Of a DNA stretch of 64,000 bases, positions 17,221-38,587 are shown piece by piece. Numbering within the stretch: the stretch's first letter is position 1; each line of letters opens with the position of its first letter. Both the position numbers and the translations under genes were made by a program. This DNA comes from Bacillota bacterium (GTDB taxonomy: Bacteria; Bacillota; Sulfobacillia; DUSP01; DYEP01), in NCBI GenBank assembly GCA_040755615.1, contig JBFMAL010000009.1, positions 3,155-67,154 of the forward strand. Reading direction: 5' to 3'. The notes beneath the pieces were generated by a model. It saw only the letters and a program-made list of their open reading frames with translations. It had not been told where the DNA came from and did not search any database.

Positions 17221-17235
17221 TGGGATCCCCCCTTT

Positions 17236-19185: not shown

Positions 19186-19188
19186 GAG

Positions 19189-21765: not shown

Positions 21766-21775
21766 AATCTACCTC

Positions 21776-22324
21776 CTAACGTTTATAACGCTTCTGCCCT
21801 TCCTCGTAAACATCACGTCCCTCCGTGTCGATACCAACTATCGCCGGGAAATGTTCGACTTCGAGCCTGTATACCGCTTCGGGGCCCAGGTCCGGGTAGG
21901 CCACCACTTCCGCCTTCCTGATGCGTTGAGCGAGCAGTGCTCCCGCTCCTCCGACAGCGAGAAAATACACGGCGGCCACATCTTTCATAGCGTCCTTGAC
22001 TGCCTGGCTTCTTTTGCCCTTGCCGATCATCCCCCGAAGACCCGCTTGTGTTAGCATAGCAGGGGTGTACGCGTCCATCCGTCCGCTCGTGGTGGGCCCG
22101 GCGGATCCGATGACCTGGCCTGGTTTGGCAGGGCAGGGACCGACGTAGTAAATGATCTGGTCAGTCAGGTCTACAGGCAGGGGCTGACCGGCCGCTATCG
22201 CCTCCGTCATCCGCTTGTGCGCCGCGTCGCGGGCGGTGTAGATCACGCCGGAGATGAGCACGCGGTCCCCCGCGATCAACGATCTGGCCTGGGACTTGTC
22301 AAACGGGGTAGTGATCCTTCTCAT
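21776..22324 (-). CDS. fumB: class I fumarate hydratase, beta subunit (C-terminal catalytic domain)
   Basis: Fe-S hydro-lyase beta-type sequence (LISGVIYTARDAAHKRM, GPTTSGRMD). Confidence 0.85.
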   Translation of the reverse strand: MRRITTPFDKSQARSLIAGDRVLISGVIYTARDAAHKRMTEAIAAGQPLPVDLTDQIIYYVGPCPAKPGQVIGSAGPTTSGRMDAYTPAMLTQAGLRGMIGKGKRSQAVKDAMKDVAAVYFLAVGGAGALLAQRIRKAEVVAYPDLGPEAVYRLEVEHFPAIVGIDTEGRDVYEEGQKRYKR

Positions 22325-22336
22325 CTAGGCTTCACC

Positions 22337-23179
22337 TCACAACTGGATTTCCGCGTGCCTTGCGGCGTGGCACTGGATGTTCACGGCTACGGGCAGCGCG
22401 CCGATGTGCGTAGGGTGGGTCTCCACGTGGACAGCGAGCGCGGTGATCCGGCCGCCCAGCCCCTGCGGGCCGATGCCGGTGTTGTTCACCGCCTCAAGTA
22501 TCTCGGACTCAAGTTTCTCCACCTCGGGGTCTGGATGGTGCTGGCCGACAGGTCGAAGCAGCGCCTTCTTGGCGAGCAGCGCGGCGGTCTCCATCATGCC
22601 CCCCACTCCCACCCCCACGATGATGGGGGGGCACGGGTTTGATCCCGCCCTACTCACGGTCTCGACCACGAAGTCCACCACGCCGCGCTTTCCGTCGGCG
22701 GGTACCATCATCCTGAGCTGGCTCATGTTCTCACTGCCAGTACCCTTGGGGCATACGACGATCTTTAAGCGATCCCCAGGCACGATGCAGGTGTGGACGA
22801 TGGCCGGGGTGTTATCCCCCGTGTTCTTCCTGTCAAAAGGATCCCGCACTACCGATTTCCTCAGGTACCCACGGGAGTATCCCCTGCGCACGCCCTCGTC
22901 GATGGCCTCCTGCAGAGAGCCCCCGGTAAAATGCACGTCCTGCCCGACTTCAAGGAACACAATGGCGACGCCGGTATCTTGGCAAATGGGGACCTCAGCT
23001 GACCTGGCCAGTTCGGCATTTTCAATGAGCAGTCCGATGATCTCCCTTCCGACTTCCGATTCCTCCGCTTCTTTTGCCCACCGGAGGCGTTCCAACACGT
23101 CACTGGGCAGCCGGTTGGCGGCCTGGATACACAGCTGCTCCACCGCGTCGGTCACCTTTGACACCGGTATCTCTCTCAA
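22337..23179 (-). CDS. fumA: class I fumarate hydratase, alpha subunit (TTG start)
   Basis: Fe-S hydro-lyase alpha-type sequence (ICQDTGVAIVFLEVGQ, Cys ligands). AAGGAGGG RBS 8 nt before TTG at 23179; the longer track ORF to 23380 has no RBS. Confidence 0.8.
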   Translation of the reverse strand: MREIPVSKVTDAVEQLCIQAANRLPSDVLERLRWAKEAEESEVGREIIGLLIENAELARSAEVPICQDTGVAIVFLEVGQDVHFTGGSLQEAIDEGVRRGYSRGYLRKSVVRDPFDRKNTGDNTPAIVHTCIVPGDRLKIVVCPKGTGSENMSQLRMMVPADGKRGVVDFVVETVSRAGSNPCPPIIVGVGVGGMMETAALLAKKALLRPVGQHHPDPEVEKLESEILEAVNNTGIGPQGLGGRITALAVHVETHPTHIGALPVAVNIQCHAARHAEIQL

Positions 23180-23376
23180 GTCGATTCCCTCCTTGCCGAC
23201 AAAATGAAGACCGGCTTCCCTGGCAATACCCTGTGAAGCCGGTAACCGTACCCGGTTTGCGCATGCCGGGTGACCCCGGCCCGCTGCAGGTACGAAGGCC
23301 GAATAAATCGCTTCCCGCACGCGACTTCGAGTTCCATCCCGCGCGGTCTGCACCATATTATCGGGAGATGAAGCGC

Positions 23377-23706
23377 TCAAGGTCTCCTTTTCAGATGGTA
23401 TGCCCTGAACTTCTCCCTGATGATCTTCATAGCAGTGATGATAGCCTTCTGGGCGCTCCCGTGGTAACGCTCCTCGATGTCCGCCACGATGGCGTCAAAG
23501 TCCTCCTCGAGGTTTAGCCCCTTCACCATGCGGATGAAGAAGTCCCTGCCTACCCCCGTGGCCAGCGTGCACTCAGCAGCGAGTATGTAGCCCCTTTGGT
23601 CCACCTCAAGGCCCACACCCACCACTTTGTACAGCTCAGACGCGGTGATACCTGCAGGCAGTTTTGCATACCCCGAGAAAAACAGGGTATCCCGGGATCC
23701 GCCCAA
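23377..23706 (-). CDS. small conserved hypothetical protein in the metF-fumA operon
   Basis: 109-aa ORF with good codon usage, overlapping the fumA-extension ORF by 4 nt. No recognisable motif. Confidence 0.4.
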   Translation of the reverse strand: MGGSRDTLFFSGYAKLPAGITASELYKVVGVGLEVDQRGYILAAECTLATGVGRDFFIRMVKGLNLEEDFDAIVADIEERYHGSAQKAIITAMKIIREKFRAYHLKRRP

Positions 23707-23785
23707 AATGCCCTCACCTCCACATGCGTTAGTGTTCAGAATTCTACGGCACGATTGGGAATCCTTCTATGTGCATGTTTTCACA

Positions 23786-24709
23786 TCAGGTCATCGCAGG
23801 TCTGGGCAGCAGCCCGCAGCGCTCCACGATCTCAGGCACGATGGATTCCCACGCGATGGCCATGATATGCACGCCCTTAACGCCTGGGATCTCCATGCAC
23901 TGCTTAATGATTTCAACGCAGATAGCGACGCCTTCTTCCGCCTGCCGATCCTTGGGCACGCCTTTCATGCGGGACAGCAGCTCGTCGGGCACGGCCATAC
24001 CGGGGACCTCCTTCATGTACTTAAGTGCCCCGTAGGACTTGGCCGGCACTACTCCAGCCATGATGTATACCTTTTCATGAAGTCCCATGTCGCGCACCAT
24101 CTCCATCCACTTGGCGAACCGTCTTAAATCGAAAATCGCCTGTGTCTGGATGAAGTCCGCGCCCGCAGCCACTTTCTTGGCCAGGCGCATCGCACGGAAC
24201 TCGAATGGGTCGCCGAAAGGATTCTCCGCGGCGCCGATAAACATCCTGGGCTCCACCTTGCACTCCTCGCCGGACAGAAACACGCGGTCATCCCGCAGAC
24301 GTTTCACCATGTTGATGAGCTGGATGGAATCAAGGTCGTACACGTTCTTCCCGGTCGGGTGATTGCCGAAGGACTGGTGGTCACCTGACAGGCACAGGAT
24401 GTCACGGATCCCGAGACTGTACGCGCCCAGGATATCGCTCTGCATGGCGATGCGGTTTCGGTCCCTGCAGGTCATCTGCATGATGGGCGTAGCCCCCGCG
24501 TTCAGCACGTGCACAGACGCGGCGATGGAAGACAGCCGCACAATGGCAGTCTGGTTGTCAGTCAGGTTCACGCCGTCAACAAAGTCGCGCAGGAGTTCCG
24601 CATGCTTGGTAATGCTTTTTGAGGACGCGCTCTTTGGCGGCCCGCACTCGGCCGTCACAACGAAGTGGCCAGCATGAAACAGTCTTTCCAGCTTGCTGTC
24701 TGTTTTCAC
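23786..24709 (-). CDS. metF: 5,10-methylenetetrahydrofolate reductase
   Basis: MTHFR TIM-barrel family (FVVTAECGPP, FIQTQAIFD). 4-nt overlap with metV. Confidence 0.85.
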   Translation of the reverse strand: MKTDSKLERLFHAGHFVVTAECGPPKSASSKSITKHAELLRDFVDGVNLTDNQTAIVRLSSIAASVHVLNAGATPIMQMTCRDRNRIAMQSDILGAYSLGIRDILCLSGDHQSFGNHPTGKNVYDLDSIQLINMVKRLRDDRVFLSGEECKVEPRMFIGAAENPFGDPFEFRAMRLAKKVAAGADFIQTQAIFDLRRFAKWMEMVRDMGLHEKVYIMAGVVPAKSYGALKYMKEVPGMAVPDELLSRMKGVPKDRQAEEGVAICVEIIKQCMEIPGVKGVHIMAIAWESIVPEIVERCGLLPRPAMT

Positions 24710-25374
24710 AGCGCCACGTCCTCCCTTCTCACGCGCCTCGGCCCGCCGTCGCGCGCCCGCGACCAGTCTTTAGGCGGGATGATTTCCATCATGAGCCACA
24801 GCTTCCCCAGTTCCTTCAGCCTGTCATAGATGAGCTGCCACGCGCAGTCCGTCTCCTTGGATACCTCGCACTTGCCGCCAGATGAGCCCCCGCATGGACC
24901 GTTCAGGAGGCTCTTTGAGCACCTGATGATAGGGCAGATCCCACCGGTCAGGTGGAGGATGCACTGGCCGCAGAAACCGCAGCGCTCTTCCCACTGGCCT
25001 GCGGTCACCGCACCTCCGCCGAACTTAGTATCAAGCGCGGGCACCACCCACGCGCTGCGGTAGCGCTCGGACAGAAACTGCACGCCTACACCGCACCCCA
25101 TGGAGACGATGGTATCCACGTCTTCCATGTCTTGTGCGATCTCCTCCAGGAACTCAGGGTCACACTGCCGGTTGAGCGTGGCGGTCTTGATTTCCACATC
25201 CCTTTTGGCCTGCCTGAAGTGGAGCCGGAGCAGACTGGCCAGCACCTCCACTTCGCGCTGCCCGCCGGCCTGGCATACCGTGACGCATTCGGAGCATCCG
25301 GCCACCAGTATGCGCCGGGCGTCTTTCAGAAAACCGATTATCTCAGGCAGGGGTTTTCTCTCTGCGACAATCAT
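24706..25374 (-). CDS. metV: MetV: MTHFR-associated zinc-ribbon/Fe-S small subunit
   Basis: Cys-rich MTHFR C-terminal-like protein (ILVAGCSECVTVCQAGG, CGFCGQC, NGPCGGSSGGKCE). Positioned immediately upstream of metF as in acetogen metVF. Confidence 0.75.
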   Translation of the reverse strand: MIVAERKPLPEIIGFLKDARRILVAGCSECVTVCQAGGQREVEVLASLLRLHFRQAKRDVEIKTATLNRQCDPEFLEEIAQDMEDVDTIVSMGCGVGVQFLSERYRSAWVVPALDTKFGGGAVTAGQWEERCGFCGQCILHLTGGICPIIRCSKSLLNGPCGGSSGGKCEVSKETDCAWQLIYDRLKELGKLWLMMEIIPPKDWSRARDGGPRRVRREDVAL

Positions 25375-25395
25375 CTCGCCTTTCCCCTCCTCCTT

Positions 25396-26238
25396 TTAGT
25401 ACTCCTGGGGCATCTGGCGAAGCTGTTCGTACGTGAACACGGGTCCGTCCTTGCACACGTACCTCGGTCCGATGTTGCAGCGGCCGCACTTGCCCACGCC
25501 ACACTTCATCCTCATCTCGAGGGTGGTTACGATCTGGGACGGGGAAAACCCGAGCTTCTCCAGGTTCTGCAGCACAAACTTGATCATGATGGGAGGGCCG
25601 CACGTAATGGCGATGGTGTTTTCAGGACTTGGACCTACCTCCATTAGTACCGCAGGCACAAACCCCTCCCTGCCGGTCCACGTCTCGTCACCCCGGTCCA
25701 CAGTCAGGTAAAACCGGATGTCCTCCCGCTTCTCCCATTTCTCCAGCTCCCACTTAAACACCAGGTCGCCAGGGCTTCTCGCCCCGTAGATGATCGTCAC
25801 GTCGCGGAATTTGCCGCGGTGCTCGTCATCGAGCACGTAGGTGATGAGCGACCGCAGCGGGGCAAGTCCGATGCCTCCCGCGATGAACACCAGGTGTTTG
25901 CCTTCCATGATTTCCACGGGGAAGTGGTTGCCGTACGGTCCTCGCACGCCGATGAGCTCGCCGGGCGCGGAATAGTGCAGCGCCGTGGTCACCTCCCCAG
26001 CCTTCTTTATGGAAAACTCGAGGTAACCTTTTTGGGTTGGCGACGAGGTAATAGATATGGGCGCCTCGCCCACGCCGAACACGGACAGCTCGGCGAACTG
26101 CCCCGGCCTGTACTGGAAGCTATCCCACACCGATTCGTCCTCGAACACCACCCTGAACGTTTTCACGTCGTTCGCTGCGGTTTCAGTGATGATCTCTTTG
26201 ATCCTTGCTTTGTGGGGAATATAAAGGTTTGACATCAC
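25396..26238 (-). CDS. NfnA/AsrB/HydG-like FAD- and [2Fe-2S]-containing NAD(P)H oxidoreductase subunit (PyrK family)
   Basis: Ferredoxin-NADP reductase-type FAD/NAD domains (RPGQFAEL, LVFIAGGIGLAPL) and C-terminal CGVGKCGRCN 2Fe-2S motif. 280 aa. Confidence 0.7.
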   Translation of the reverse strand: MMSNLYIPHKARIKEIITETAANDVKTFRVVFEDESVWDSFQYRPGQFAELSVFGVGEAPISITSSPTQKGYLEFSIKKAGEVTTALHYSAPGELIGVRGPYGNHFPVEIMEGKHLVFIAGGIGLAPLRSLITYVLDDEHRGKFRDVTIIYGARSPGDLVFKWELEKWEKREDIRFYLTVDRGDETWTGREGFVPAVLMEVGPSPENTIAITCGPPIMIKFVLQNLEKLGFSPSQIVTTLEMRMKCGVGKCGRCNIGPRYVCKDGPVFTYEQLRQMPQEY

Positions 26239-27245
26239 TTCACCTCCCCGATCTCGGAGATGACCTCACGGATATCTGTGTTCACAGGGCATACCTCCAC
26301 GCAGCGCCCGCAACCCACACACGCAATGGCGCCGGAGTTCACCGGGAAATAATTGAACTTGTGCATGATACGCTGGCGCATGCGCTGCTTACCCGAGGTC
26401 CTCGGGTTGTGACCTGAGGTGTGCAGGGTAAACAGCGGGAACATGCACGAGTCCCAGTTTCTCACCCGGTGGCCTTCGGTGGTCTTTGCCTCATCGGTCA
26501 CGTCAAAACAGTGGCACGTGGGGCAAAGGTACGCGCACGCGGCGCAGCCCAAGCATTTTTCGTGGATCCTGTCCCAGATCTCGTGTTCGAACATGTGAGT
26601 GAGCTTGTCGGGCAGGACCTCCGCTGGATATCTCGGCATCATATCGCGCGCGAGGTCGGCAAGGGCAGATGCGCGCGCTTCTACTTCGCCTGAACCTTCA
26701 GGCAGTTCCCCCACGAGCGCCTCGCCCCGTCCGGTCAGCGGGTACACCGCGTATTCGTCCCCTGTGTCAACAAACAGTACGTCAAGCCCTTCTGTACCGT
26801 GAGGATCCCCGGCTACGGAGGTGCAGAAACACGAGCGCAAAGGCTTGTTGCAGCCAAGCCCGACGAGCACGGTGCGTTCCCTCTTTGCCTTGTACAGATC
26901 ATCGGTGAAGCGCTCGTCAAGGAATACCCTGTCAAGCAGCGCAAGGCTTCTGGCATCACAGGGTCTTACGCCGAATACTACCGTCTGCTCATGGTCCTGG
27001 TCTATTGGTGATAGCTCCGCGTTCATCCTGTCGCCAGTATAGGCAAACATCCGCTCCGACCTCGGGAAAAACAGCTCTTTCAGGGGTTTCCAGGTGTTCC
27101 GGCCCAAATCCAACTCGGCCCCGGGTTCCCACGGAGCGAGATTTGTCATCTCATCTTGCCGCGCGGGGGCAAGCACCCTGGCCGACTGGGACCACTTACC
27201 CAAAAGGCACGGCAGGTCTTTCTTCTGTAGTATCTTGACGGCCAT
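26235..27245 (-). CDS. AsrA/HydB-like Fe-S subunit (anaerobic sulfite reductase A / sulfhydrogenase beta family)
   Basis: CLGCAACAYLCPTCHCFD and CVGCGRCVEVCPV motifs. Start at ATG 27245 (MAVKILQKKDLP, AGGGGG RBS) rather than the track start at 27326. Confidence 0.65.
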   Translation of the reverse strand: MAVKILQKKDLPCLLGKWSQSARVLAPARQDEMTNLAPWEPGAELDLGRNTWKPLKELFFPRSERMFAYTGDRMNAELSPIDQDHEQTVVFGVRPCDARSLALLDRVFLDERFTDDLYKAKRERTVLVGLGCNKPLRSCFCTSVAGDPHGTEGLDVLFVDTGDEYAVYPLTGRGEALVGELPEGSGEVEARASALADLARDMMPRYPAEVLPDKLTHMFEHEIWDRIHEKCLGCAACAYLCPTCHCFDVTDEAKTTEGHRVRNWDSCMFPLFTLHTSGHNPRTSGKQRMRQRIMHKFNYFPVNSGAIACVGCGRCVEVCPVNTDIREVISEIGEVK

Positions 27246-27258
27246 AGTAGCGCCCCCT

Positions 27259-28197
27259 CTACTTGATAAAGTCATTGGGATCATCCGCCCTGAAGGTGGA
27301 GAGCACCTGCTTTCCCTCGTGCTCAAGCCCTGCAGTAAAGCCGAACAGTTCTCTCACGTCCCGCTCTAGCTTTTTGTTCAGCGCCCGCAGGTCCACGCCC
27401 ATCGGACACGCCTTCACGCACGCGCCGCAGTCTACGCATCGGCCGGCGAGGTGCAAGGCCCTTATAATATGGAAGATCGCCGTATCGCTCGGATCGTCCG
27501 TGCCGCCCACCCACCTCGGGGCCGAGCGGTCTACGAAACACTCCTTGCAGTAGCAGCCGGGGCACGCCTGCCTGCAGGCGTAGCACCTGATGCACTTTTC
27601 AAACTGGGCGGTAAAATATGCCCAGCGCTCATCCGGCGTGAGTCTTTCCATGTCGTCCACGAGGGCAAAGGGTTCCGCCACCTGCGCCGCAGCGGCTTCA
27701 CCCAGCTTTATCGCAGCGCCCGGTGCCTCCTTCACCTCGCACGTCTCGCAGGACGGGTGGAGCACTTCAAAAAGCTGTAGCGTCTCCTCCCAACCGTCGC
27801 CGCGCACGCGGACGGTGTCGCCGTCCATCTCCGCACCGGTGATCTCCTTTCCCGAAAGCCGCCGAGAAAGCCTGTCTCGTCCGATCACTCCCTGGCACGG
27901 CACGCCGATGACCACCACGTTACCGGGGTCAAGCTGCCTCTCCCTCAGGTATTCCTGCACCGAGCGGGCGTCGCAGCCCTTAGCCACCACCGCGAGGCGT
28001 TTCCCGGCGTATCGCGGAAGGTAGGTGGACAGGTTGTTCTCGCACGTGGCGTCGAATACGGCGCACTCCGCATCTTCTGCGTTCCTTATAAACACGGGGG
28101 TCGAGCGCAGCGGCAGGCTGCCCTTTGCGTACGCGATCACCAGGTCCACTTTGCCGCCGGCCAGCATCTCACGTATAACGCGTCTAAGCTCTTCCAC
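27259..28197 (-). CDS. FrhB/FdhB-family-like Fe-S protein, second paralog
   Basis: CIRCYACRQACPGCYCKEC and CVDCGACVKACP motifs similar to the 9782-10888 gene, with an N-terminal domain resembling FrhB_N. Confidence 0.5.
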   Translation of the reverse strand: MEELRRVIREMLAGGKVDLVIAYAKGSLPLRSTPVFIRNAEDAECAVFDATCENNLSTYLPRYAGKRLAVVAKGCDARSVQEYLRERQLDPGNVVVIGVPCQGVIGRDRLSRRLSGKEITGAEMDGDTVRVRGDGWEETLQLFEVLHPSCETCEVKEAPGAAIKLGEAAAAQVAEPFALVDDMERLTPDERWAYFTAQFEKCIRCYACRQACPGCYCKECFVDRSAPRWVGGTDDPSDTAIFHIIRALHLAGRCVDCGACVKACPMGVDLRALNKKLERDVRELFGFTAGLEHEGKQVLSTFRADDPNDFIK

Positions 28198-28633
28198 GCG
28201 CCGTCCCTCCTTTCACTAGTTTGACAGAGGGACCAAGCTCTTTCACCGTCTCTGTCACTTCTTTGATCACCTGGGCGAACTTTTGCCCCTCAGCCGCCGA
28301 CACCCAGGAAAACTGGACCCGGCCGGGCTCGATCCCCATGTACTCAAGGAGGTTCTTAAGCAGCAAAAACCTCCTCCGCGCCAGCAGGTTGCCGGCGAGG
28401 TAATGGCAATCACCGGGGTGGCAGCCGGAGACGAGCACGCCGTCAGCGCCGCGCTGCAGCGCCTTCAAGATGAATATGGGGTTTATTGACCCGGAGCACG
28501 GTACCCGGATGACCCTCACGTTGGGCGGGTACTGGAACCTGGATATCCCGGCCAGGTCTGCCCCGGCGTAGCTGCACCAGTGGCAAAGGAATGCCACGAT
28601 CCGCGGTTCCCAGTTGGCTTCTTTGTTTACCAT
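28184..28633 (-). CDS. mvhD: MvhD-type hydrogenase iron-sulfur subunit, second copy
   Basis: RIVAFLCHWCSYAGADLAG ... CSGSINP ... GCHPGDCHY. Start at ATG 28633 with GGAGGTG RBS; the longer track ORF would overlap hdrL. Confidence 0.75.
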   Translation of the reverse strand: MVNKEANWEPRIVAFLCHWCSYAGADLAGISRFQYPPNVRVIRVPCSGSINPIFILKALQRGADGVLVSGCHPGDCHYLAGNLLARRRFLLLKNLLEYMGIEPGRVQFSWVSAAEGQKFAQVIKEVTETVKELGPSVKLVKGGTARGRA

Positions 28634-31600
28634 GGCAGCGCTGCCACCTCCGCCAGAATCTGTTCCTCGGTGAAGCCGCGGAGCACTATCGCGCCGCACC
28701 TGCAGTTGGCCGCGCAGCTACCGCAGCCCTTGCACACCGCGCTCTCTACTTCCGCCACTTTCTTGTCCGGGTTCACCCGGATGGCGGAGAACACGCACAG
28801 CTGCTCACATGCGCCGCAGCCTGTGCAGCGGTTTTCAATGACCGACGCCACGATGCCTCCGGCTTCAATCGACTCCTTCGATATGACTGTCACGGCACGG
28901 CCTACAGCGGCCATCGCCTGGGAAATACTCTCTGATACTGTCTTGGGCGCGTGCGCAAGGCCCGCCACGAACACACCGTCGGTGGCGAAATCCACGGGGC
29001 GAAGCTTGACGTGCGCCTCCAGGAAGAACCTGTCATCGTTCACGGGCACCTTCAGGAGTTGGGCCACGGCCTTGGAGTCGTCGTGAGGCACGATGGCCGC
29101 TCCAAGCACCACGCAGTCGGCGTCCATCTCCGCGTCGCAGCCTGATACGGCGTCGTGCACGCGCACGGTGAGACGGCCGTCCAAAGCCTGTACCACAGGT
29201 TTTGCCTGATCGTCATAGCGGATGAACGTCACGCCAGCCTCCCTCGCCGCCCTGTAGTAGTCCTCTTTCAGGCCGTAGGTCCGCATATCCCGGTACAGCA
29301 CCGTCACCTCAGCGCTCGGGTCAGCCGCCAGGATGTCCAGCGCGTTCTTCACCGCCTGCCCGCAGCATACCCTCGAGCAGTACGGCCGTTCCGGTTCTCT
29401 TGAGCCCACGCACTGGATCATCACCACCCGCCTGCCCGGCAGCGCGCCTTTTGCGAGCCGCTGTTCCAGTTGGGTCTGCGTCATCACCCGGTCGTCGGTC
29501 CCGTACAGGTACTCCGTGGGCTCGTATTCCTTGCCGCCTGTCGCTACCACTACCGCGCCGTGCTCGAAGCTGACCTTCTCGCCGCGCACCGACAGCGTTG
29601 TCTTGAAGTTGCCCACGAACCCGTCGATCGCCTCTATCTCCGCGCCCGTGTATACGGTTACCAGCTCGTTGTTGCTCACCCTGTCCACGAGCTCGGAAAG
29701 GAGTTTTTTGTAATCTGTGCCCTCGAGCGACTTTGCCAGCTTTTTCAGGTTGCCGCCCAGCGAGTCCTCGCGCTCCACCAGGTATACCGGGTATCCCTGG
29801 TCAGCGAAGCCGAGCGCCGCGGTCATGCCCGCAGGTCCGCCCCCAATGACCATCGCCTTCTGGATCACCGGTACCTTATGCCGCTTTAAGGGCTCAAGCC
29901 GCGCGGCCTTGGCCACCGCCATGGCTACCAGGTCTTTCGCCTTCCGCGTGGCGGCCGCGGGCTCGTGCATGTGCACCCATGAGCACTGGTCACGGATGTT
30001 GGCCATTTCAAACAGGTACGGGTTCAGCCCCGCTTCCCTGATGGTCTGCTGGAACAGCGGTTCGTGAGTGCGCGGTGAGCAGCTGGCGACCACGATTCGG
30101 TTCAGGTCGTGCTCCTCGATGAGCGCCTTGATCTTGTCCTGTGTATCCTGGGAGCAGGTGTACAGGTTCTCCTCCGCGTACACCACGTACGGCAGCGTGC
30201 GTGCATACTCCACTATTTCGGGCACGCGCACCACACCGCCTATGTTGATGCCGCAGTGGCACACGAACACGCCGATCCGCGGCCTCTTGTTCCTTACGTC
30301 GCGTTCCTTCGGGTACTGCTTGGCGGAGACTCGCGTGAACCTCTCGGGCGCCAGCACCGAGCCGACCGCCGCTGCGGCCGCCGAAGCCTCCATCACTGTT
30401 TCCGGTATGTCCTTCGGGCCTGCAAAAGCGCCAGAGACGAAGATTCCCGGAGTGGAGGTAGCTACCGCCGCGACTCCTGAGGACAACACATAGTTATGCT
30501 CGTCAAGGTGTAGGCCTACGCGCTTTGCCAGCTCCACTGTGTCTGCCTTCGGCCGCATGCCGACGGACAGCACCACCATGTCGAACTCTTCTGTGTCCAT
30601 GTGCCCGTCTTCGTGCGTGAACCGGACGCGCAGGTTTTGGTTGGACCGGTCCTCCTCTACTCCGTAGACCTTGGCGCGGACGAACCGCACGCCGTGCTCT
30701 TCCCGGGCCCTGTTGTAGTATTTTTCGAAGTCCTTGCCATAGGCCCTCATGTCCATGAAGAAAATGGTGATGTCAAGGTCGCCGGACACGTGTTCCTTGG
30801 CGATGACCGCCTCCTTTATTGCGTACATGCAGCACACAGAGGAGCAGTATGATTCGGCCTCTTTCACGTCCCTTGAGCCGATGCACTGCACGAAGGCGAT
30901 CCGCTTCGGCGTTCTGTGGTCAGATGGTCTCACCACGTGGCCTTCGTACGGGCCGGATGCAGACAGGATCCGCTCGAACTCAAGCGATGTCACCACGTTC
31001 TTGTATTTGCCGTAACCGTACTGGGTGAGAGGGGACGGGTCAAACGCCTCAAAGCCCGGGCACAGCACCACCGCGCCCACTTCTATCTCCCTGATCACGG
31101 GCTCATCGTCATGCATTACCGCGTTTGCGCGGCAGGCCGCCTCGCACTCGAGGCACTCCGAGCACACGCCGCAGTCGAGGCACCTTGAGGCCTCCGCCAC
31201 GGCCTGCTCGGCAGTATATGGCAGCTCTACTTCCGCAAAGCCTGAAAGCCTCTCTGAGAGCGGGAGCGTGGGCCATTTCTTTCTCGCTTCCCTCGCGCGT
31301 TCCTTGGGGACATCACCCACTACCATATGGGGCTTATCAAACACCCGGTCCTCACGCAGGTCTCTCCCTTCGAGGTACCGCAGGATGCTCTCCGCGGCCC
31401 TCTTGCCCGCCGCCACGGCTTCCACCACGGTAGCAGGCCCCGTCACCGCGTCGCCGCCGGCGAACACACCGGGGACAGAGGTTTCGAGTGTATCCGGGTC
31501 CGCCTTCAGCCATCTTCCCCTGTCGGTGATCTCTGGCGCTTCATCTGCGAAGCTGAGGTCCGGCACCTGGCCGATGGCTGATATGATGGTGTCGCCCGCG

Positions 31601-33051
31601 ACGGTGAACAGAGAACCCGGGATGGGCTCGGGCCTTCTCCTGCCGGAGGCGTCGGGCTTGCCAAGCCGCATGCGCACACACTCAAGTCCGCGTGCGACCC
31701 CGTTTTCCGCAATGACTCGGTGCGGCGCCGTGAGGAACTGTATCTCTATTCCCTCACGCTGCGCTTCTTCGACCTCGTGCTCGTTTGCGGGCATTTCGGC
31801 CCTGGAGCGCCTGTAAAGGATGGTCACTTTCTTCGCGCCCAGCCTGAGCGCGGACCGCGCCGCGTCGATGGCCACGTTGCCGCCGCCGATGACCAGCACG
31901 GACTCTCCGACCTTCACGGGCTTTTGGAGGTTCATCTCTCGCAGGAAATCCACGCCCGATAGCACGCCGGCGGCGTCCTCTCCCTCAATGCCCAGCCTTT
32001 GCTCGCGGTGAGCGCCCACCGCGATGAACACGGCCCTGTAGCCCTGGGCCTTCAGGTCGGAAAGGCTCACGTCGCGGCCCAGCGCGGTGTTGCACCTGAT
32101 CTCCACGCCCAGCCTTTCGATGGCGCCGATCTCCGCTCGGATCACGTCCTTCGGCAGCCTGTAGGGCGGGATGCCCACGGTGAGCATGCCGCCTGCCACA
32201 GGCAGCGCCTCAAACACCGTGACGTCAAATCCCTCGAGCGCCAGGTCGTAGGCGCATGTCAAGCCAGCGGGACCTGAACCCACCACGGCCACCTTGACGC
32301 CGCGGGAGGGCTTGGGCTCGGGATCGACACACACGCCCCTTTCATATTCATAGTCAGCGATAAACCTCTTCAAATGACATATGGCGATTGGGTCGTCTAT
32401 GAGGCCGCGCTTGCAGCTGGCCTCGCACGGGTGGTGACACACCCTCCCGCATATGGCGGGCAGGGGGTTGTTTCGCTTCACCAGCCGTACCGCCTCTTTG
32501 AACTTGCCATCCCGGATGAGTGCCACGTAACCCTGGGCGTGCACTCCCGCAGGGCAACTCACAGTGCATAACGCCCTGTCCTTCTTCTCTATGCTGAACG
32601 CGTTGGGGTACGCCTGGGGGAATGGCCGGAACACGGCCTTCCTCTCGCCCAGCCCGTACTCGTACTGGTTTTTCACCCTGACCGGACAGGCCTTTTCGCA
32701 GTCCCCGCAGCCCGTACATTTAGACAGGTCGATATACCGGGGATTCTGCCTGATCTTCACCTTGAACTGGCCTTCGGTCCCTTCGATATCCAGGACTTCG
32801 GCGTTCGTCAGGCTCTCTATGTTGAGGTGCCTGCCGCATTCCACAAGCTTTGGAGAAAGGATGCACATGGCGCAGTCGTTGGTGGGAAAGGTCTTATCAA
32901 GGCGCGCCATGGTACCGCCGATGGATGGGGACTTCTCCACCAGGTAGACGTAAAACCCGGATTCGGCCAGGTCCAGTGAGGCCTGCATGCCCGCTATGCC
33001 CCCGCCGACCACCAACGCCGCTCCCACTTTGTTCTTTCTGTCAGCGGCCAC
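28627..33051 (-). CDS. hdrL: giant HdrA-like multi-domain flavoprotein, second paralog (HdrL-type, 1474 aa)
   Basis: Same architecture as 11355-15797: VVGGGIAGMQAS, VAVVGSGPAGLTCA, VIGGGPAGMTAA, NfnB-like CGRVCHHPCEASC, internal VFVCHCGINIG, multiple ferredoxin motifs. About 55-60% identity to the first paralog in the N-terminal region by eye. Confidence 0.8.
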   Translation of the reverse strand: MAADRKNKVGAALVVGGGIAGMQASLDLAESGFYVYLVEKSPSIGGTMARLDKTFPTNDCAMCILSPKLVECGRHLNIESLTNAEVLDIEGTEGQFKVKIRQNPRYIDLSKCTGCGDCEKACPVRVKNQYEYGLGERKAVFRPFPQAYPNAFSIEKKDRALCTVSCPAGVHAQGYVALIRDGKFKEAVRLVKRNNPLPAICGRVCHHPCEASCKRGLIDDPIAICHLKRFIADYEYERGVCVDPEPKPSRGVKVAVVGSGPAGLTCAYDLALEGFDVTVFEALPVAGGMLTVGIPPYRLPKDVIRAEIGAIERLGVEIRCNTALGRDVSLSDLKAQGYRAVFIAVGAHREQRLGIEGEDAAGVLSGVDFLREMNLQKPVKVGESVLVIGGGNVAIDAARSALRLGAKKVTILYRRSRAEMPANEHEVEEAQREGIEIQFLTAPHRVIAENGVARGLECVRMRLGKPDASGRRRPEPIPGSLFTVAGDTIISAIGQVPDLSFADEAPEITDRGRWLKADPDTLETSVPGVFAGGDAVTGPATVVEAVAAGKRAAESILRYLEGRDLREDRVFDKPHMVVGDVPKERAREARKKWPTLPLSERLSGFAEVELPYTAEQAVAEASRCLDCGVCSECLECEAACRANAVMHDDEPVIREIEVGAVVLCPGFEAFDPSPLTQYGYGKYKNVVTSLEFERILSASGPYEGHVVRPSDHRTPKRIAFVQCIGSRDVKEAESYCSSVCCMYAIKEAVIAKEHVSGDLDITIFFMDMRAYGKDFEKYYNRAREEHGVRFVRAKVYGVEEDRSNQNLRVRFTHEDGHMDTEEFDMVVLSVGMRPKADTVELAKRVGLHLDEHNYVLSSGVAAVATSTPGIFVSGAFAGPKDIPETVMEASAAAAAVGSVLAPERFTRVSAKQYPKERDVRNKRPRIGVFVCHCGINIGGVVRVPEIVEYARTLPYVVYAEENLYTCSQDTQDKIKALIEEHDLNRIVVASCSPRTHEPLFQQTIREAGLNPYLFEMANIRDQCSWVHMHEPAAATRKAKDLVAMAVAKAARLEPLKRHKVPVIQKAMVIGGGPAGMTAALGFADQGYPVYLVEREDSLGGNLKKLAKSLEGTDYKKLLSELVDRVSNNELVTVYTGAEIEAIDGFVGNFKTTLSVRGEKVSFEHGAVVVATGGKEYEPTEYLYGTDDRVMTQTQLEQRLAKGALPGRRVVMIQCVGSREPERPYCSRVCCGQAVKNALDILAADPSAEVTVLYRDMRTYGLKEDYYRAAREAGVTFIRYDDQAKPVVQALDGRLTVRVHDAVSGCDAEMDADCVVLGAAIVPHDDSKAVAQLLKVPVNDDRFFLEAHVKLRPVDFATDGVFVAGLAHAPKTVSESISQAMAAVGRAVTVISKESIEAGGIVASVIENRCTGCGACEQLCVFSAIRVNPDKKVAEVESAVCKGCGSCAANCRCGAIVLRGFTEEQILAEVAALPW

Positions 33052-33054
33052 CGT

Positions 33055-33537
33055 CTACTCCTCCCCCGAACCTAAAGAGTTTACCACTCCCGCAAGCAGC
33101 GCGCGAAAGTCGACGCTCTCTGACTTTGCCTTGCCGGGAAGCATGGACAGCACCAGCGCGCGCCTCACCTTCTGCGAGAACTCGTCGGCCTGCTCCATCC
33201 TTTCGAGGAAGGATGGGTGCACGAAGCCGTGCTCCACGGCCATCTCACGAAGTACTCCCATGATGTCCGTGAACCGGACGTCTTGCGGGCAGTGCGCGTG
33301 GCAGGTGTGGCACGTGGTGCAGAGCCATATGAGATCCGACGAGAGCACTTCCTCGCGGAGGCCAAGGAGTACCTTTCTTATAATCCGCCTCGGGTTGTAT
33401 TCTTCGTCCACTTCCGCCACCGGGCAGCCGGCGGTGCACACGCCGCAAGCAAAACATGTCTTGATCCTGTCTCCGCCGGGCCGGCTTGCCACCTCATACT
33501 TGAACCTGGGATCCACTTTTGTCTCACACAAGGCCAT
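33055..33537 (-). CDS. HdrC-like 2x[4Fe-4S] ferredoxin subunit
   Basis: CFACGVCTAGCP and CTTCHTCHAHCP motifs. 160 aa. Confidence 0.7.
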   Translation of the reverse strand: MALCETKVDPRFKYEVASRPGGDRIKTCFACGVCTAGCPVAEVDEEYNPRRIIRKVLLGLREEVLSSDLIWLCTTCHTCHAHCPQDVRFTDIMGVLREMAVEHGFVHPSFLERMEQADEFSQKVRRALVLSMLPGKAKSESVDFRALLAGVVNSLGSGEE

Positions 33538-33555
33538 ACAATTCTCCCTCCTCGG

Positions 33556-33972
33556 CTATACCGCGTCAAAACCTGCGCGGGAGGATATTCCGTTCAACTT
33601 GACTGCCATTTCGTCTATGGCGCGGACGAAGCGTGCGGGCGTCGCAGGGGAAACATTCACCATGGAAAGCCTATCCGGGTCAAGCCCTGCGTCCTGAAGC
33701 TGCGCCTTCAGATATTCCACTCTCTTGCTCGCACGCACGTTGCCTGAGACAAAGTTGCAGGCGTCCTCGAAACAACCGAACACCAAGACTCCGTCGGCGC
33801 CCTGCTCGAATGCCTTGAGAATGTGGATCGCGTCCACCCTTCCTGAACACTCCACAGGATAAAACATTACGCCACCGTCAAGCCTTGCGCCCTTGCTCAC
33901 AGCCTCAAATAAGCACTTGCTCGCCGAATGTTCGCAACAAAAAGCCACTATCCGGGGCGACCTGTCGCTCAC
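33556..33972 (-). CDS. MvhD-like iron-sulfur subunit (GTG start overlapping upstream stop as GTGA)
   Basis: RIVAFCCEHSASKC ... CSGRVD ... GCFEDACNF MvhD-like pattern. GGGAGGGAG RBS before GTG at 33972. Confidence 0.65.
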   Translation of the reverse strand: MSDRSPRIVAFCCEHSASKCLFEAVSKGARLDGGVMFYPVECSGRVDAIHILKAFEQGADGVLVFGCFEDACNFVSGNVRASKRVEYLKAQLQDAGLDPDRLSMVNVSPATPARFVRAIDEMAVKLNGISSRAGFDAV

Positions 33973-35513
33973 AGCGCTCCCTCCCCACTCGATGCGAGTT
34001 CTGCCAGGAATTCCTCGTCGGTATATGCGATGACACTTATGGCCCGGGCGGGGCAGGCCGAGGCGCACACGCCGCAACCTTTGCATTTTGAGCCGTCAAC
34101 CCTGGCAGCGGATTTGTCCGACATGCTGTAGCTGTCGATAGCGATGGCTCCGAACGGGCAGAGCCTCACGCAGGTGAGGCACCTGGCACACAGCGCCGCG
34201 TCCACCGCCACCTTGTCGCTCGTGTCCACGCACGAAAGGAAGCGTTCTATCTCATCCGCAGCCTGGTACGCATCAAGCGCCTGTTCGTAGTCGTCAAGAT
34301 CCGCCCTTGCCTCGCCCACCACAAAGATACCCACGCGCGCGCTGTTCACCCCGGAAAACCTCACGTTGCCGGGCTGCACAGGCGAAAGCCCGAGCACCCT
34401 GGCAGCGCCAGCCAGTGCCTTCGAGGGTACCAGCGTCTCGTCAACGACCAGGATGTCAAGGGGCAAATGGAGCGGTTGTTCCATCCACTGCCCGCCAAGA
34501 GACGGCAAATGGCAGCTGACGACGAGAGCGTCTTCCTCTGTTGACACCGAAAACGCTCGCCCTTCTTTCTTGATCACCAGCACTCCCGCTTCCCGCGCCT
34601 GCCTGTACTTGGCTTCAAGTCCTTTGCCCGCAACCTTTACATCCCGGCAGAACACGTACGCTTCGCCGCCAAAGCGCGTGACAACGTCTTTGGCTAGGTC
34701 AAGCGCCTGAGTTACATATCGCTTGGAGTGCTCGGTGGAAACGTCCACCATGAAGCCGACACGGCGTCCCCTGAGCCTCGGTACGCATACTGTACTCTCG
34801 CTGTTTAAAAGACACGAAAACCCTGTCATGGAGTATATGCCCATGCCCAGTTCAAAGCCGTGATCCGCCTGACGGTACTCCGAGTTTTGGGACTCGGCCA
34901 GCACCAAAGCTCCGGCGGGCAGGTCCAACTTTTCGCCGGCCTTCTCCACCGTGAGCGAAAAGCGCCCAGGGCCGCCCTCGAGCCTGATGAGACTCGCGCC
35001 AGCGAGCACCGATACGCCCGCTGTATCAAGCAGCGCAGCTTTCTCCGGGGGCATGCCGCCTTCCGCCTCGGTGATCAGAGTCACCTTCTTGCCCCGTCCG
35101 GCCAGCAGCCCGGCGACATGAAGCCCCGCAGGGTTATCACCCACCACGACCACTTCATCCGAGGTCACACATGAAGATGCCGGCTTCCTGGCAGCCTTTG
35201 CGCGAGCCCGGGCCACAGCGCGGGCGAGTAACTCTCTGGCCTTGTCGCCGGGTTCCCGGTACATGAACGCGCAGCCTTCCCGGAGGTCCAAGAACACGCT
35301 GTCAGTCCCTGCGCTGCCTGCTAGAAGCCTTCTTGCGAGAAACGGCGGGCACGCGCCGATCACCGCGGGGCCCCCGTCCAACACGCCTTTATCCTCTCCG
35401 CAGAGGCACTCCACCGCCGTGCCGCCGAACTCAGACGCAAGCGCGTTAATGTCGATGCGGTCCGAGATGGCGCCCCTGCAGCCGCACAGCACCAGCTTGA
35501 ATTCATCCATCAC
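33969..35513 (-). CDS. degenerate HdrA-like protein (N-terminal Cys domain + degenerate FAD fold + C-terminal 2x[4Fe-4S])
   Basis: LVLCGCRGAIS N-terminal motif, degenerate VVVVGDNPAG dinucleotide site, C-terminal CARCLTCVRLCP and CKGCGVCASACP. Confidence 0.55.
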   Translation of the reverse strand: MMDEFKLVLCGCRGAISDRIDINALASEFGGTAVECLCGEDKGVLDGGPAVIGACPPFLARRLLAGSAGTDSVFLDLREGCAFMYREPGDKARELLARAVARARAKAARKPASSCVTSDEVVVVGDNPAGLHVAGLLAGRGKKVTLITEAEGGMPPEKAALLDTAGVSVLAGASLIRLEGGPGRFSLTVEKAGEKLDLPAGALVLAESQNSEYRQADHGFELGMGIYSMTGFSCLLNSESTVCVPRLRGRRVGFMVDVSTEHSKRYVTQALDLAKDVVTRFGGEAYVFCRDVKVAGKGLEAKYRQAREAGVLVIKKEGRAFSVSTEEDALVVSCHLPSLGGQWMEQPLHLPLDILVVDETLVPSKALAGAARVLGLSPVQPGNVRFSGVNSARVGIFVVGEARADLDDYEQALDAYQAADEIERFLSCVDTSDKVAVDAALCARCLTCVRLCPFGAIAIDSYSMSDKSAARVDGSKCKGCGVCASACPARAISVIAYTDEEFLAELASSGEGAL

Positions 35514-36733
35514 GACGACACCTCCGCCTCAAGCCGGGATACGAGCGACATTGCCGCGCCCTGCGCGTGGGCGATGGCGTCCGCGATGGTCATGGGCTTG
35601 GCGCACGCCCCTGCCACCACCACGCCTGGCCTGCGCGTGGCGAAATGGCCGGTCTCGTCAAAGAATCCGTGCTCGTCAAGGTTCAGCCCAAGTCGCCTGC
35701 CGACCAGCGCCGCGTCTTCGCGCGGCCAGATGCCTGTGGACAGCACCACCAGGTCAAACTCGGCATGCGCGACCCGGGCGCTTGATTGGTCCTCGTATCT
35801 GACCAACACGCCCTGCTTTCCCTTCTTGATCTCCACCGGCATCCCCGACACGAACCTGGCGTGTGCCTTGCACTCTTCATATACCTTGGAAAAGCCTTTA
35901 CCTGCCGACTGTATGTCCATGTAGAACAGGGTAAACTCGGTGTCAGGCCGCTCTTTCCTTAGGGCGTTGATCATCCTCAGCGCATACTTGCAGCACACCT
36001 CGGAGCAGTAGTTTCTCCCGAGGGGGATGTTACGGGAACCCACGCACTGCACGAACGCGATGCGCCGGGGCGCTTGGCCATGAAGGAGCAGCGTCCCGTG
36101 CTGTCTCAGCGCTTCCTCCGCCTCCATGGCCGTCATCACGCCGGGTATCCTGCCGTAGCCCAGGTCCCATGCGTTCGCGGCATCGAACGGGGAGAACCCG
36201 GTCGCCACCACCACTCCGTCCGCGCGCAGCGTAAATGTCCGGGCCGGCAGGAGCTGTATCGCCCCGAAAGCACATGCAGTCCTGCACTTTCCGGCGCAAT
36301 CTGCGGGGCATTCTGCTTCGTTCATCACCACGGCCTGCGGATATGCACTCGCAGGCGCTCTCTTTATGGCGCCGGCGGTGCAGCTGTCCATGCACTGGCC
36401 GCATGCCGTACATTTGTCAGGGTCCACCCATCTTTCCCTCTGGGTCACCTCGACGGTGAAATCTCCGGGGAAGCCCCGGAGGGCGGTTACCGATGCCCTG
36501 GTGTGCACCGCCACTCCAGACAGGTCTCCGAGCTCCTCCATCTTATCGCTAACCAGGCAGACACCGCACATGGTGCAGCTTGATGACGCCTTACACCCGT
36601 AGGTGATCGCGCGTCCGCCCAGGTAGTCGGCTCTGTCGACGATGTGCACGTCGATTCCCCGTCGCGCGAGGGAAAGGGCGGCGGAAACCCCGGCTATACC
36701 TCCACCAATGATGATGACAGTACGTTTTGCCAA
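35510..36733 (-). CDS. HdrA-like FAD oxidoreductase core (lacks the N-terminal Cys domain and C-terminal ferredoxin)
   Basis: VIIIGGGIAGVSAA FAD site, inserted ferredoxin motifs (CTACGQCMDSC), HdrA-like CVGSR and CSEVCC motifs. Confidence 0.65.
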   Translation of the reverse strand: MAKRTVIIIGGGIAGVSAALSLARRGIDVHIVDRADYLGGRAITYGCKASSSCTMCGVCLVSDKMEELGDLSGVAVHTRASVTALRGFPGDFTVEVTQRERWVDPDKCTACGQCMDSCTAGAIKRAPASAYPQAVVMNEAECPADCAGKCRTACAFGAIQLLPARTFTLRADGVVVATGFSPFDAANAWDLGYGRIPGVMTAMEAEEALRQHGTLLLHGQAPRRIAFVQCVGSRNIPLGRNYCSEVCCKYALRMINALRKERPDTEFTLFYMDIQSAGKGFSKVYEECKAHARFVSGMPVEIKKGKQGVLVRYEDQSSARVAHAEFDLVVLSTGIWPREDAALVGRRLGLNLDEHGFFDETGHFATRRPGVVVAGACAKPMTIADAIAHAQGAAMSLVSRLEAEVSS

Positions 36734-36760
36734 AGGTCAAAGCCCCCCTTTTTTTGCTTT

Positions 36761-37567
<807 letters not shown>

Positions 37568-38587
37568 TTAAAAGTGGTTCGGAACCATCATCTGGTCGAT
37601 ATGCTTCTTAACTAGCTGGACAGCCTTTGGGTGCCTTAAGACCAGCACGTGAGCACCGGCCTGGAGCAGCGCGCCCGCGGTGACCGCTTCCCAGAGCACG
37701 GATCTGGTATCCACCTCGCCCCACGTGGGGAATTCTGATGCGGGTGCGTTGGCCTCTTTGGACCTCCATGATTCATAACCGACATTGCATATAACGGGCA
37801 TGGACAGCATCTTATCCCCACCTAGCGCGCCCAGGCGTATCCGTTCCATGATGGAGTACACGTACTCGATGCCGTAGCCGAGCCCCGCCACCGTCGGGTC
37901 GATGAGCACGCGCTCAAAGGGCAGGTTCATCTCGGTGATCAGGATGTTCAGCTGCTTGCATATATTGATGTCGATCGGCGATTGGGCGATGATCGTGTGC
38001 TTGTGCACCATGCAGGCGGCGGTAAGCGTCTTGTAGTTCTCCTGGGTAGCCGTGCCGAGCACCAGGTTTTCGCCTGCAGCGGCCTCCGCCACCACTGGAA
38101 GCACCTCGTTGTCCTTTTCGTCGTCACCGCATCCGATAACGATCAGCGGGACTGATACGGCGGAAAGCACGCTCTTCACTGTGCTCGCGCATGCTTCGGG
38201 CGATCTGTTCTCCCCTTCGGGGTCCGCCCCGTTGAGCCGGAGGCAGATGAGGTCCGCCCCGTAATCCTCAACACACTTTTTGGCCCAGGCCGCGGGATCA
38301 TCAAGTACGCCGGCGAAGGGCTCCGTAAGGTGCGCTGCCCAGCCTTCTGGCTGGACGTCCAGGACCTCCATGGCGACTACCGGCCTGTTTGCCACCTCTC
38401 CCTCAAAATGGAGGAAAGGTAGTGTGCTGTCTCCGCCGACCTTTATTACGTGAGACCTGGTCCCGCCCATCTCCTTGGTAGCCCCGAGCACGACCTCACC
38501 GACCCTGCTCGTGTACCGTTCCTTGAGCTTTTCAACAGCCATGGCTACTCCCCTTTCTTTAAGACAAGCCTTATGATCAAATGCCAC
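37568..38587 (-). CDS. acsD: corrinoid iron-sulfur protein small (delta) subunit
   Basis: TIM-barrel CFeSP small-subunit-like sequence in the canonical position between cooC and acsE. Confidence 0.8.

Follow-up and report, generated by a model that had tools for sequence, protein, structure and literature searches.

Which electron donor and which second acceptor serve the methylenetetrahydrofolate (methylene-THF) reductases of the Hdr type has been unresolved since 2014. The question matters for energy balance in acetogens of the Moorella type, in syntrophic acetate oxidisers and in complete-oxidising sulfate reducers, and it is raised again by a locus of a Bacillota bacterium in which metV and metF follow nine genes for Hdr-like and Flx-like redox proteins. 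The window analysed here is a stretch of 64,000 nt (contig JBFMAL010000009.1, positions 3,155-67,154; assembly GCA_040755615.1), of which the locus occupies positions 23786-36733. Genes were called from a list of open reading frames (ORFs) and domains were assigned by Pfam, NCBIfam and PDB searches. These recovered all the genes that an earlier model-made annotation, here called the sequence-only reading, had listed for the locus.

The ORF list places every gene of the locus on the minus strand, read from high to low coordinates. On this strand the locus extends the acs genes at their 3' end and lies downstream of them, not directly upstream of the CODH/ACS genes (for carbon monoxide dehydrogenase/acetyl-CoA synthase) as the sequence-only reading had placed it. 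The ORF list and Pfam together give the transcription order as DUF3786-cooS-acsB-acsC-RACo-cooC-acsD-acsE, with the Hdr genes next and metV-metF last.

The locus consists of HdrL with MvhD1 and a short HdrC-like protein, a Flx-like NAD(P)H module, a split Sporomusa-like HdrA pair with MvhD2, and MetV with MetF. It may be read, with about even confidence, as a variant of the Hdr-associated (Moorella/Sporomusa-type) MetFV reductase that would be soluble, NAD(P)H-linked and probably ferredoxin-coupled. The sequence-only reading had called this an undescribed architecture, which overstates its novelty because the features taken as unusual are mostly the norm for the enzyme family. The set of AsrB-, AsrA-, FrhB- and MvhD-like genes matches a known Flx-type module. 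What sets the locus apart is that split HdrA-MvhD, HdrC-HdrL-MvhD-FlxCBA and MetVF occur together, a combination conserved in a small uncultured clade of the Bacillota. Flx-like genes between mvhD and metV, and with them a second, split HdrA with its own MvhD, were not found in the literature searched, coverage of which was partial and does not prove absence.

HdrL is a Moorella-type HdrA

The largest protein of the locus, HdrL (28627-33051, 1474 residues), aligns to Methanothermococcus HdrA (5odc_A, 3.2e-202) in four segments. Residues 12-157 and 630-847 correspond to a first FAD domain (HdrA') and to the inserted ferredoxin domain, which is in two halves. Within that inserted domain lies a GltD/NfnB-like FAD and NAD(P)H domain (residues ~159-620), similar to NfnB (4ylf_B, 6e-106) and to the glutamate synthase small subunit. 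Residues 923-1076 form the HdrA N-terminal domain, a second FAD domain follows, and residues 1292-1468 match the C-terminal part of HdrA with its C-terminal ferredoxin domain. GxGxxG motifs lie at residues 16, 258, 389 and 1070, those at 258 and 389 falling in the GltD/NfnB-like domain. Both HdrA-type flavin sites carry the Glu/Lys pair that is the signature of bifurcation (E693/K746 and E1196/K1235). The NfnB-like part is thus a domain within HdrL and not a separate subunit paired with NfnA as in NfnAB.

The sequence-only reading had set this fusion apart from the arrangement in Moorella, a contrast that does not hold. HdrA of M. thermoacetica (Moth_1194) is a 162.8 kDa protein of 1487 residues with the same GltD insertion and with pairs at E696/K750 and E1204/K1246 (Kremp et al., PMC9430772). 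Judged by published length, layout and Glu/Lys positions, the 1474-residue fusion is an ordinary Moorella-type HdrA, and what had seemed the main elaboration over Moorella is therefore not new. The likeness extends to the whole Moth_1191-1196 cluster (Mock et al. 2014, via PMC9430772 and PMC5861303), which also follows acsE with the same strand logic and is soluble. By published description it contains HdrC, a HdrA'-GltD-HdrA'' protein of ~1480 residues with two Glu/Lys pairs, MvhD, MetV and MetF. Unlike that cluster, the locus has no HdrB, carries three Flx-like genes between mvhD and metV, has an additional split HdrA pair and second MvhD upstream, and encodes a shorter HdrC-like protein.

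The name HdrL dates from 2009, when it was given to a fusion of HdrA and glutamate synthase followed by MvhD (PMC2702500). [quoted passage not shown] Desulfobacterium autotrophicum HdrL and Syntrophobacter fumaroxidans HdrABC/HdrL (PMC2702500, PMC5947623) share the large fusion followed by MvhD, S. fumaroxidans adding an FdhB-like Fe-S protein. In those species, however, the linkage is to dsr, fdh or hdrABC and not to acs/metVF with Flx-like genes. Fusions of HdrA and NfnB have also been noted in ANME-1. The family is large, with at least 8000 scored proteins (all E <= 1e-20) and at least 597 species genomes, and homologs of ~1475 residues are 55-69% identical among the matches listed. In a neighbour-joining tree of 84 HdrL sequences the clade of the window falls near L056/L047 and the Flx-type Syntrophales group. 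Genomic context types are interleaved across this tree, so it does not decide between a MetVF-type and a Flx-type clade. A subgroup of homologs of ~1650 residues, some 175 residues longer (P0026, P0067, P0072, P0096, P0105 and others), includes Thermoplasmatota archaea and shows an extra Fe-S domain, PF25160, in the Pfam lists.

A Flx-like module between mvhD and metV

Downstream of HdrL, MvhD1 (28184-28633; PF02662, 7.3e-58) is equivalent to FlxD, and its likely start is the ATG at 28633, the mechanical ORF reaching 28699. It is followed by the FlxC-like protein (27259-28197, 312 residues), an Fe-S protein of the FdhB/FrhB fold with FrhB_FdhB_C and 2x[4Fe-4S] domains. Next comes the FlxB-like protein (26235-27245; PF17179 (Fer4_22), 3.4e-33), which resembles sulfhydrogenase beta and AsrA and has a likely ATG start at 27245 inside a mechanical ORF of 363 residues that reaches 27326. 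The last of the three, the FlxA-like protein (25396-26238, 280 residues), is similar to sulfhydrogenase gamma and AsrB. It has FAD_binding_6, NAD_binding_1 and DHODB_Fe-S_bind domains and carries FAD, NAD(P)H and [2Fe-2S] sites.

The last two are homologous to the beta and gamma subunits of Pyrococcus furiosus sulfhydrogenase I (SHI), which form an NAD(P)H module. The FlxB-like protein matches SHI beta (9nez_B, 7.5e-43), and the FlxA-like protein matches SHI gamma (9nez_C) at 2.9e-70 vs 7.4e-15 for NfnA (4ylf_A). The second comparison rules out an NfnA identity for the 280-residue protein, which the sequence-only reading had called NfnA-like. Both proteins score below every NCBIfam equivalog cut-off (148 vs 323 for TIGR02910, 206 vs 289 for TIGR02911). 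A genuine sulfite reductase AsrABC was also considered and ruled out, with the AsrA and AsrB scores under their cut-offs and no AsrC-like gene in the locus.

The FlxC-like protein belongs to a family of 3808 members at E <= 1e-10 and is similar to FdhB-like subunits from the Hdr supercomplexes of methanogens (8rvu_E, 7bkb_E, 9t1s_M; ~1e-26). It presumably connects the NAD(P)H module with MvhD1/HdrL as an adaptor. Unlike the methanogen Fdh-Hdr and Elp-Hdr complexes (7bkb, 8rvu) and SHI, the locus encodes no catalytic subunit of a formate dehydrogenase or hydrogenase and has no F420 context. The acceptor side would also differ from that of the methanogen complexes, being MetFV and not HdrBC.

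MvhD1 shows the same affiliation. Its median identity is 68% (range 55-80) to 24 MvhDs that precede FlxC-like genes vs 45% to 39 that precede MetV. MvhD1 and the three Flx-like genes are predicted to make up a Flx-type (FlxABCD) input module that oxidises NAD(P)H, a match made at the level of domains. In Desulfovibrio, Ramos et al. reportedly described in 2015 an hdrCBA-flxDCBA order that corresponds to HdrC-(HdrB)-HdrA-MvhD-FlxC-FlxB-FlxA, and NADH-driven bifurcation at HdrA is said to have been proposed there for the FlxABCD-HdrABC system of D. vulgaris. Domain by domain that system (cited in PMC5947623) resembles the present one, in that a FAD/NAD/2Fe-2S protein of the FlxA type is encoded beside hdrA together with two Fe-S proteins and an MvhD-like FlxD. 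It differs in that HdrA is here of the large HdrL type, no HdrB/DsrC disulfide site is present and MetVF comes next instead.

MetV (24706-25374; PF12225, 2.1e-36) starts 21 nt past the FlxA-like gene, and MetF (23786-24709; PF02219, 1.3e-43) overlaps the MetV stop by 4 nt. The unit thus has two independent pyridine-nucleotide sites, one in the GltD/NfnB-like domain of HdrL and one in the FlxA-like protein. Together with the tight metVF spacing they make NAD(P)H coupling of a MetFV-Hdr enzyme, as the sequence-only reading had suggested, a reasonable interpretation.

Conservation of the arrangement

Window proteins were compared by tblastn with 86 loci, of which 62 HdrL genes had enough downstream DNA to be classified; the sample is biased to sequences most similar to the query. 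The most frequent arrangement is HdrL-MvhD-MetV-MetF (31/62 loci, several phyla), which has HdrB nearby in two loci (the Moorella-like L071 and L079) and lacks it in 29. HdrL-MvhD-FlxC-...-FlxB-FlxA without MetVF accounts for 14 loci, six with HdrB (Syntrophales) and eight without. The arrangement of the window, HdrL-MvhD-FlxCBA-MetVF, occurs in five, none with HdrB. A fumarate-reductase type makes up three loci, all with HdrB, and the remaining nine have other arrangements, three of them with HdrB. The sequence-only reading had treated the lack of HdrB as exceptional, but it is shared by 29 of the 31 HdrL-MvhD-MetVF loci. Because HdrL-MvhD-MetVF without HdrB is the commonest form among the sampled loci, the six-subunit model from Moorella may be the exception and not the rule. 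HdrB-less acs/metF clusters with HdrA and MvhD have been reported in Thermacetogenium phaeum, 'Ca. Contubernalis alkaliaceticus' and 'Ca. Syntrophonatronum acetioxidans'.

Those five loci that match the window (L001, L002, L082, L083, L085) share its 18-gene order, and their HdrL proteins are 64-69% identical to that of the window. All are Bacillota- or Clostridia-labelled metagenome-assembled genomes (MAGs) or metagenome contigs, and L086 is a partial sixth locus of the same kind. MetV follows the FlxA-like gene at 16-69 nt in these relatives, with start/stop overlaps elsewhere, and acsE is 61-78% identical in the syntenic loci. Given this recurrence in five contigs, the 18-gene arrangement is not due to chance. 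Its practical value is limited, since its carriers are MAGs only and the complex is a putative one.

The same gene set stands beside Wood-Ljungdahl genes in three orders, L020 and L056 being two independent rearrangements next to acsE. Locus L020 (a Bacillota MAG, ~2724-16500) has acsD-acsE-[HdrL-MvhD-FlxCBA]-[HdrC-HdrL-MvhD-MetVF] with two HdrL genes, and resembles the window arrangement in unmerged form. In L056 the order is [HdrAn-HdrAc-MvhD-MetVF]-[HdrC-HdrL-MvhD-FlxCBA].

Two further variants were seen in the survey. Desulfobacterota and some other phyla (e.g. L024, L026, L032, L034, L044, L053, L059) have the order MetF'-HdrL-MvhD-MetV-MetF, where MetF' is a distant paralog directly upstream of HdrL that is 23-33% identical to the MetF of the window. 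Syntrophales/Smithella loci (L004, L006, L008, L011, L016, L062) carry an HdrC-HdrB pair between FlxC and FlxB of an HdrL-MvhD-Flx cluster, which makes a complete Flx-Hdr system on an HdrL-type HdrA.

One enzyme or two

The genes, their order and conservation, the cofactor motifs and the fold similarities are observed; from these we infer a single complex of all parts, an electron path and bifurcation. The unit offers up to six flavin sites (the FlxA-like protein, three in HdrL, HdrAn and MetF). It also has two [2Fe-2S] proteins of the MvhD kind and a string of [4Fe-4S] domains. In the proposed mechanism NAD(P)H would be oxidised by the flavin of the FlxA-like protein, by HdrL in its GltD-like domain, or in both places. 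Electrons from the former would pass from the [2Fe-2S] cluster of FlxA through FlxB and FlxC to the [2Fe-2S] cluster of MvhD1 and on to the HdrL flavins, a path modelled on the input of methanogen Hdr supercomplexes. There the pair would be split at the flavins that bear the Glu/Lys signature of bifurcating HdrA. The high-potential electron may reach the flavin of MetF, and so methylene-THF (-200 mV), by way of the HdrC-like protein and/or MvhD2 and the clusters of MetV, so that MetFV would take the place held by HdrB in methanogens. The low-potential electron would pass to ferredoxin via the ferredoxin domains of HdrA. The system might also run in reverse, oxidising methyl-THF. With HdrB absent and an NAD(P)H input module recognisable, the possible reaction is narrowed to NAD(P)H, ferredoxin and methylene-THF.

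Several observations argue for such a MetFV-Hdr reductase. The layout, length and residue pairs of HdrL are those published for Moorella HdrA, and Moorella HdrA purifies with MetFV-HdrBC-MvhD (PMC9430772, PMC5861303). HdrL-MvhD-MetV-MetF are adjacent in half of the classified loci (31/62), the order of the window is conserved, L020 and L056 retain the same parts after rearrangement, and MvhD1 co-varies with FlxC-type partners. The domain assignments agree with it as well, and the unit shows neither transmembrane segments nor a CCG domain.

Other findings weigh against it. Locus L084 (6146-17669; HdrL 62% identical) has the full nine-gene module from HdrAn to FlxA with no acs or MetVF genes nearby. 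This locus and the 14 HdrL-Flx loci without MetVF indicate that the redox module can stand alone, and the occurrence of all nine genes apart from MetVF and acs leaves their union with MetFV into one enzyme conjectural. The Flx-partner type of MvhD1 also makes contact between HdrL and MetV uncertain. In the literature, the Hdr proteins of Sporomusa ovata have been proposed as a membrane tether for MetVF and not as a bifurcating unit, and neither NADH:methylene-THF activity nor ferredoxin reduction has ever been seen in vitro with the Moorella complex. The module in L084 is flanked by DNA polymerase III alpha and MatE genes and by unrelated genes, with a protein of 274 residues without a Pfam match after FlxA.

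These findings give the strongest alternative its footing: that the operon encodes two enzymes. The nine-gene module would be an autonomous soluble complex for redox balancing that links NADH, NADPH and ferredoxin in the manner of Nfn or Stn, or acts as an NAD(P)H:ferredoxin enzyme. MetFV would be a separate reductase of the MetVF type using reduced ferredoxin, and the two would be co-located only for co-expression with the Wood-Ljungdahl pathway. This is a real possibility, though we consider it on the whole rather improbable. Beyond L084, the 14 loci and the type of MvhD1, it is favoured by the two pyridine-nucleotide sites of the module, as in NfnAB, and MetVF-only enzymes running on reduced ferredoxin are proposed in PMC8760232. 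However, MetV is held 16-69 nt past the FlxA-like gene across five genomes, HdrL-MvhD-MetVF adjacency is very widely conserved, the MetFV of Moorella physically co-purifies with an HdrL-type HdrA, and MetVF and Flx-HdrL units are independently kept adjacent in L020 and L056.

A more ambitious version of the MetFV-Hdr reductase joins all 11 proteins into one soluble supercomplex with at least six flavins. HdrL and HdrAn/HdrAc would be its two units of the HdrA type, each with its own MvhD, and with two pyridine-nucleotide sites (FlxA-like and GltD-like) it would couple NADH, NADPH, ferredoxin and methylene-THF. Such an assembly seems unlikely; if real, it would functionally unite an Nfn-like transhydrogenase with a bifurcating methylene-THF reductase that has MetFV in place of HdrB.

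HdrB and the second Hdr cluster

The sequence-only reading held that the locus has no HdrB and hence no disulfide substrate site. Within the locus this stands. Pfam found no CCG domain in any of the 11 ORFs, a six-frame scan for the CCG cysteine pattern found none hidden in 23786-36733, and no HdrB occurs in the syntenic loci L001, L002, L082, L083 and L085. That scan also detects four CCG domains beyond the locus on the same strand. They belong to two true HdrB genes (19189-20067 and 15794-16651, minus strand), each with two CCG domains (PF02754, 4e-20 and 1.5e-26), which lie 3.7 and 7.1 kb beyond metF. The absence of HdrB is therefore a property of the conserved unit and not of its neighbourhood.

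Both genes are part of a second Hdr locus (7466-20466, minus strand) with the order HdrC-HdrB-HdrA(649 residues)-HdrC-HdrB-HdrL2-MvhD-FrhB-like(380 residues)-FrdB-like-FrdA-like. HdrL2 (15797-11355, 1480 residues) is 53% identical to the first HdrL. A soluble flavoprotein of the fumarate-reductase type appears to be wired to HdrABC/HdrL here, and the same arrangement is found in L063 and partly in L076. The HdrL part of this locus (11355-20466) is a closer match to the S. fumaroxidans HdrABC/HdrL type than the metVF-associated locus is, but the attached fumarate reductase sets it apart from that type.

It could be argued that HdrC-HdrL-MvhD-FlxCBA borrows the HdrC-HdrB proteins encoded 3.7-7 kb downstream and acts as a Flx-Hdr-type reductase of a DsrC-like or other disulfide, with MetFV unrelated to it. 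Two HdrB genes on the same strand and the HdrC-HdrB pair inside Syntrophales HdrL-Flx loci lend this some appeal. The downstream HdrBs, however, sit in their own HdrCBA-HdrCB-HdrL2-MvhD-FrhB-FrdBA cluster. That cluster is not conserved beside metF, its equivalent in MAG086 (L063) being on another contig than the acs-metF locus (L082), and no HdrB is found near the unit in L001, L002, L082, L083 or L084. The HdrC-like protein of the unit (33055-33537, 160 residues) has two CxxCxxCxxxC motifs and matches TIGR03290 at 3.8e-28 with 98 bits vs a cut-off of 160. The match covers only profile positions 1-87 of 144, so that its C-terminal part is unlike canonical HdrC. A borrowed HdrB is accordingly a very unlikely explanation.

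The split HdrA pair and MvhD2

Upstream of the HdrC-like gene, two HdrA-like genes and a second mvhD complete the unit. HdrAn (35510-36733, 407 residues) matches positions 138-556 of the NCBIfam HdrA2 model (1.4e-78) and, the GltD insert apart, aligns with the N-terminal half of HdrL. It consists of a thioredoxin-reductase-type FAD domain and a partial inserted ferredoxin domain, and has neither the N-terminal domain nor the C-terminal ferredoxin domain. GGGIAG lies at residues 10-15, and the signature Glu is kept while the signature Lys is replaced by Arg. HdrAc (33969-35513, 514 residues), assigned by Pfam/NCBIfam, motifs and alignment to HdrL, corresponds to the C-terminal half of HdrL and has a region like the N-terminal domain. 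It is degenerate, with GDNPAG instead of GxGxxG and the CVGSR...CC cluster motif missing, and its C-terminal 2x[4Fe-4S] ferredoxin domain is intact.

The sequence-only reading took these for two partial genes. They are a conserved pair, the start of HdrAc overlapping the HdrAn stop by 4 nt, and the two-gene form is kept in L001 and L082-L086. A frameshifted pseudogene was ruled out because the overlapping form is conserved in every relative examined. MvhD2 (33556-33972; PF02662, 1.1e-33), an MvhD/FlpD [2Fe-2S] protein, has a likely GTG start at 33972, where GTGA overlaps the HdrAc stop, the mechanical ORF reaching 34086. Its median identity is 39% to MetV-adjacent MvhDs vs 34% to Flx-adjacent ones.

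The pair is best compared with the HdrCBA-MvhD-MetVF cluster of S. ovata (PMC9430772). HdrAn and HdrAc together (921 residues) mirror the plan of its 942-residue HdrA, in which an extra FAD domain is added to an HdrA without the inserted ferredoxin domain and only one flavin site looks competent. Unlike its S. ovata counterpart, the pair is split over two genes, lacks an HdrBC partner and occurs alongside HdrL. A membrane-linked or quinone-dependent reductase with Hdr-like proteins tethering MetFV, as proposed for S. ovata and T. phaeum, draws on this resemblance, on the S. ovata HdrCBA-MvhD-MetVF model and on the methylenetetrahydrofolate reductase activity of T. phaeum with a quinone analog, but it is the least credible of the alternatives, as none of the 11 proteins showed a transmembrane-like segment, the unit has no cytochrome or quinone genes and a dedicated soluble NAD(P)H module instead, and it lacks HdrB although the S. 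ovata model uses HdrCBA and MvhD as membrane linkers.

Gene order and neighbouring genes

The gene string is compact, with intergenic gaps of 1-27 nt and otherwise start/stop overlaps. Its probable first gene encodes a DUF3786 protein (47012-47620, minus strand; PF12654, 5.8e-50), which also heads the cooC-Hdr string in L086. The acs genes follow on the same strand and were assigned by Pfam: cooS/acsA (46851-44842; Prismane), acsB (44812-42608; CODH_A_N/CdhC/ACS_CODH_B_C), acsC (42590-41256; FeS and CdhD), RACo (41281-39326; RACo domains), cooC (39329-38577; CbiA) and acsD (38587-37568; CdhD). The methyl-THF:corrinoid methyltransferase gene acsE (36761-37555; PF00809 Pterin_bind, 1.2e-18) comes next, and the first Hdr gene (at 36733) lies 27 nt beyond it. 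A terminator and promoter scan of 19000-38000 gave 20 terminator-like sites vs 14.8 +/- 3.6 expected, none convincing after metF or before metV. MetF is the last conserved gene of the unit, and unrelated or opposite-strand genes come next in L001, L082 and L083.

The second Hdr locus is flanked on the minus strand (4889-7459 and 20524-23706) by genes from TCA-type and C4-dicarboxylate metabolism, encoding DUF3870, fumarate hydratase alpha/beta, malic enzyme and succinyl-CoA synthetase beta/alpha, and then by a gene for Hsp20. DUF3870 and fumarase also come after metF in L085. These genes suggest that a C4 branch, reductive or oxidative, is linked with the Hdr/Frd cluster. Further away (61243-62772, minus strand), an MttB-family gene, similar to trimethylamine methyltransferase, lies beside a saccharopine-dehydrogenase-like gene and hints at a methyl input of the methylated-amine or glycine-betaine type to the Wood-Ljungdahl pathway.

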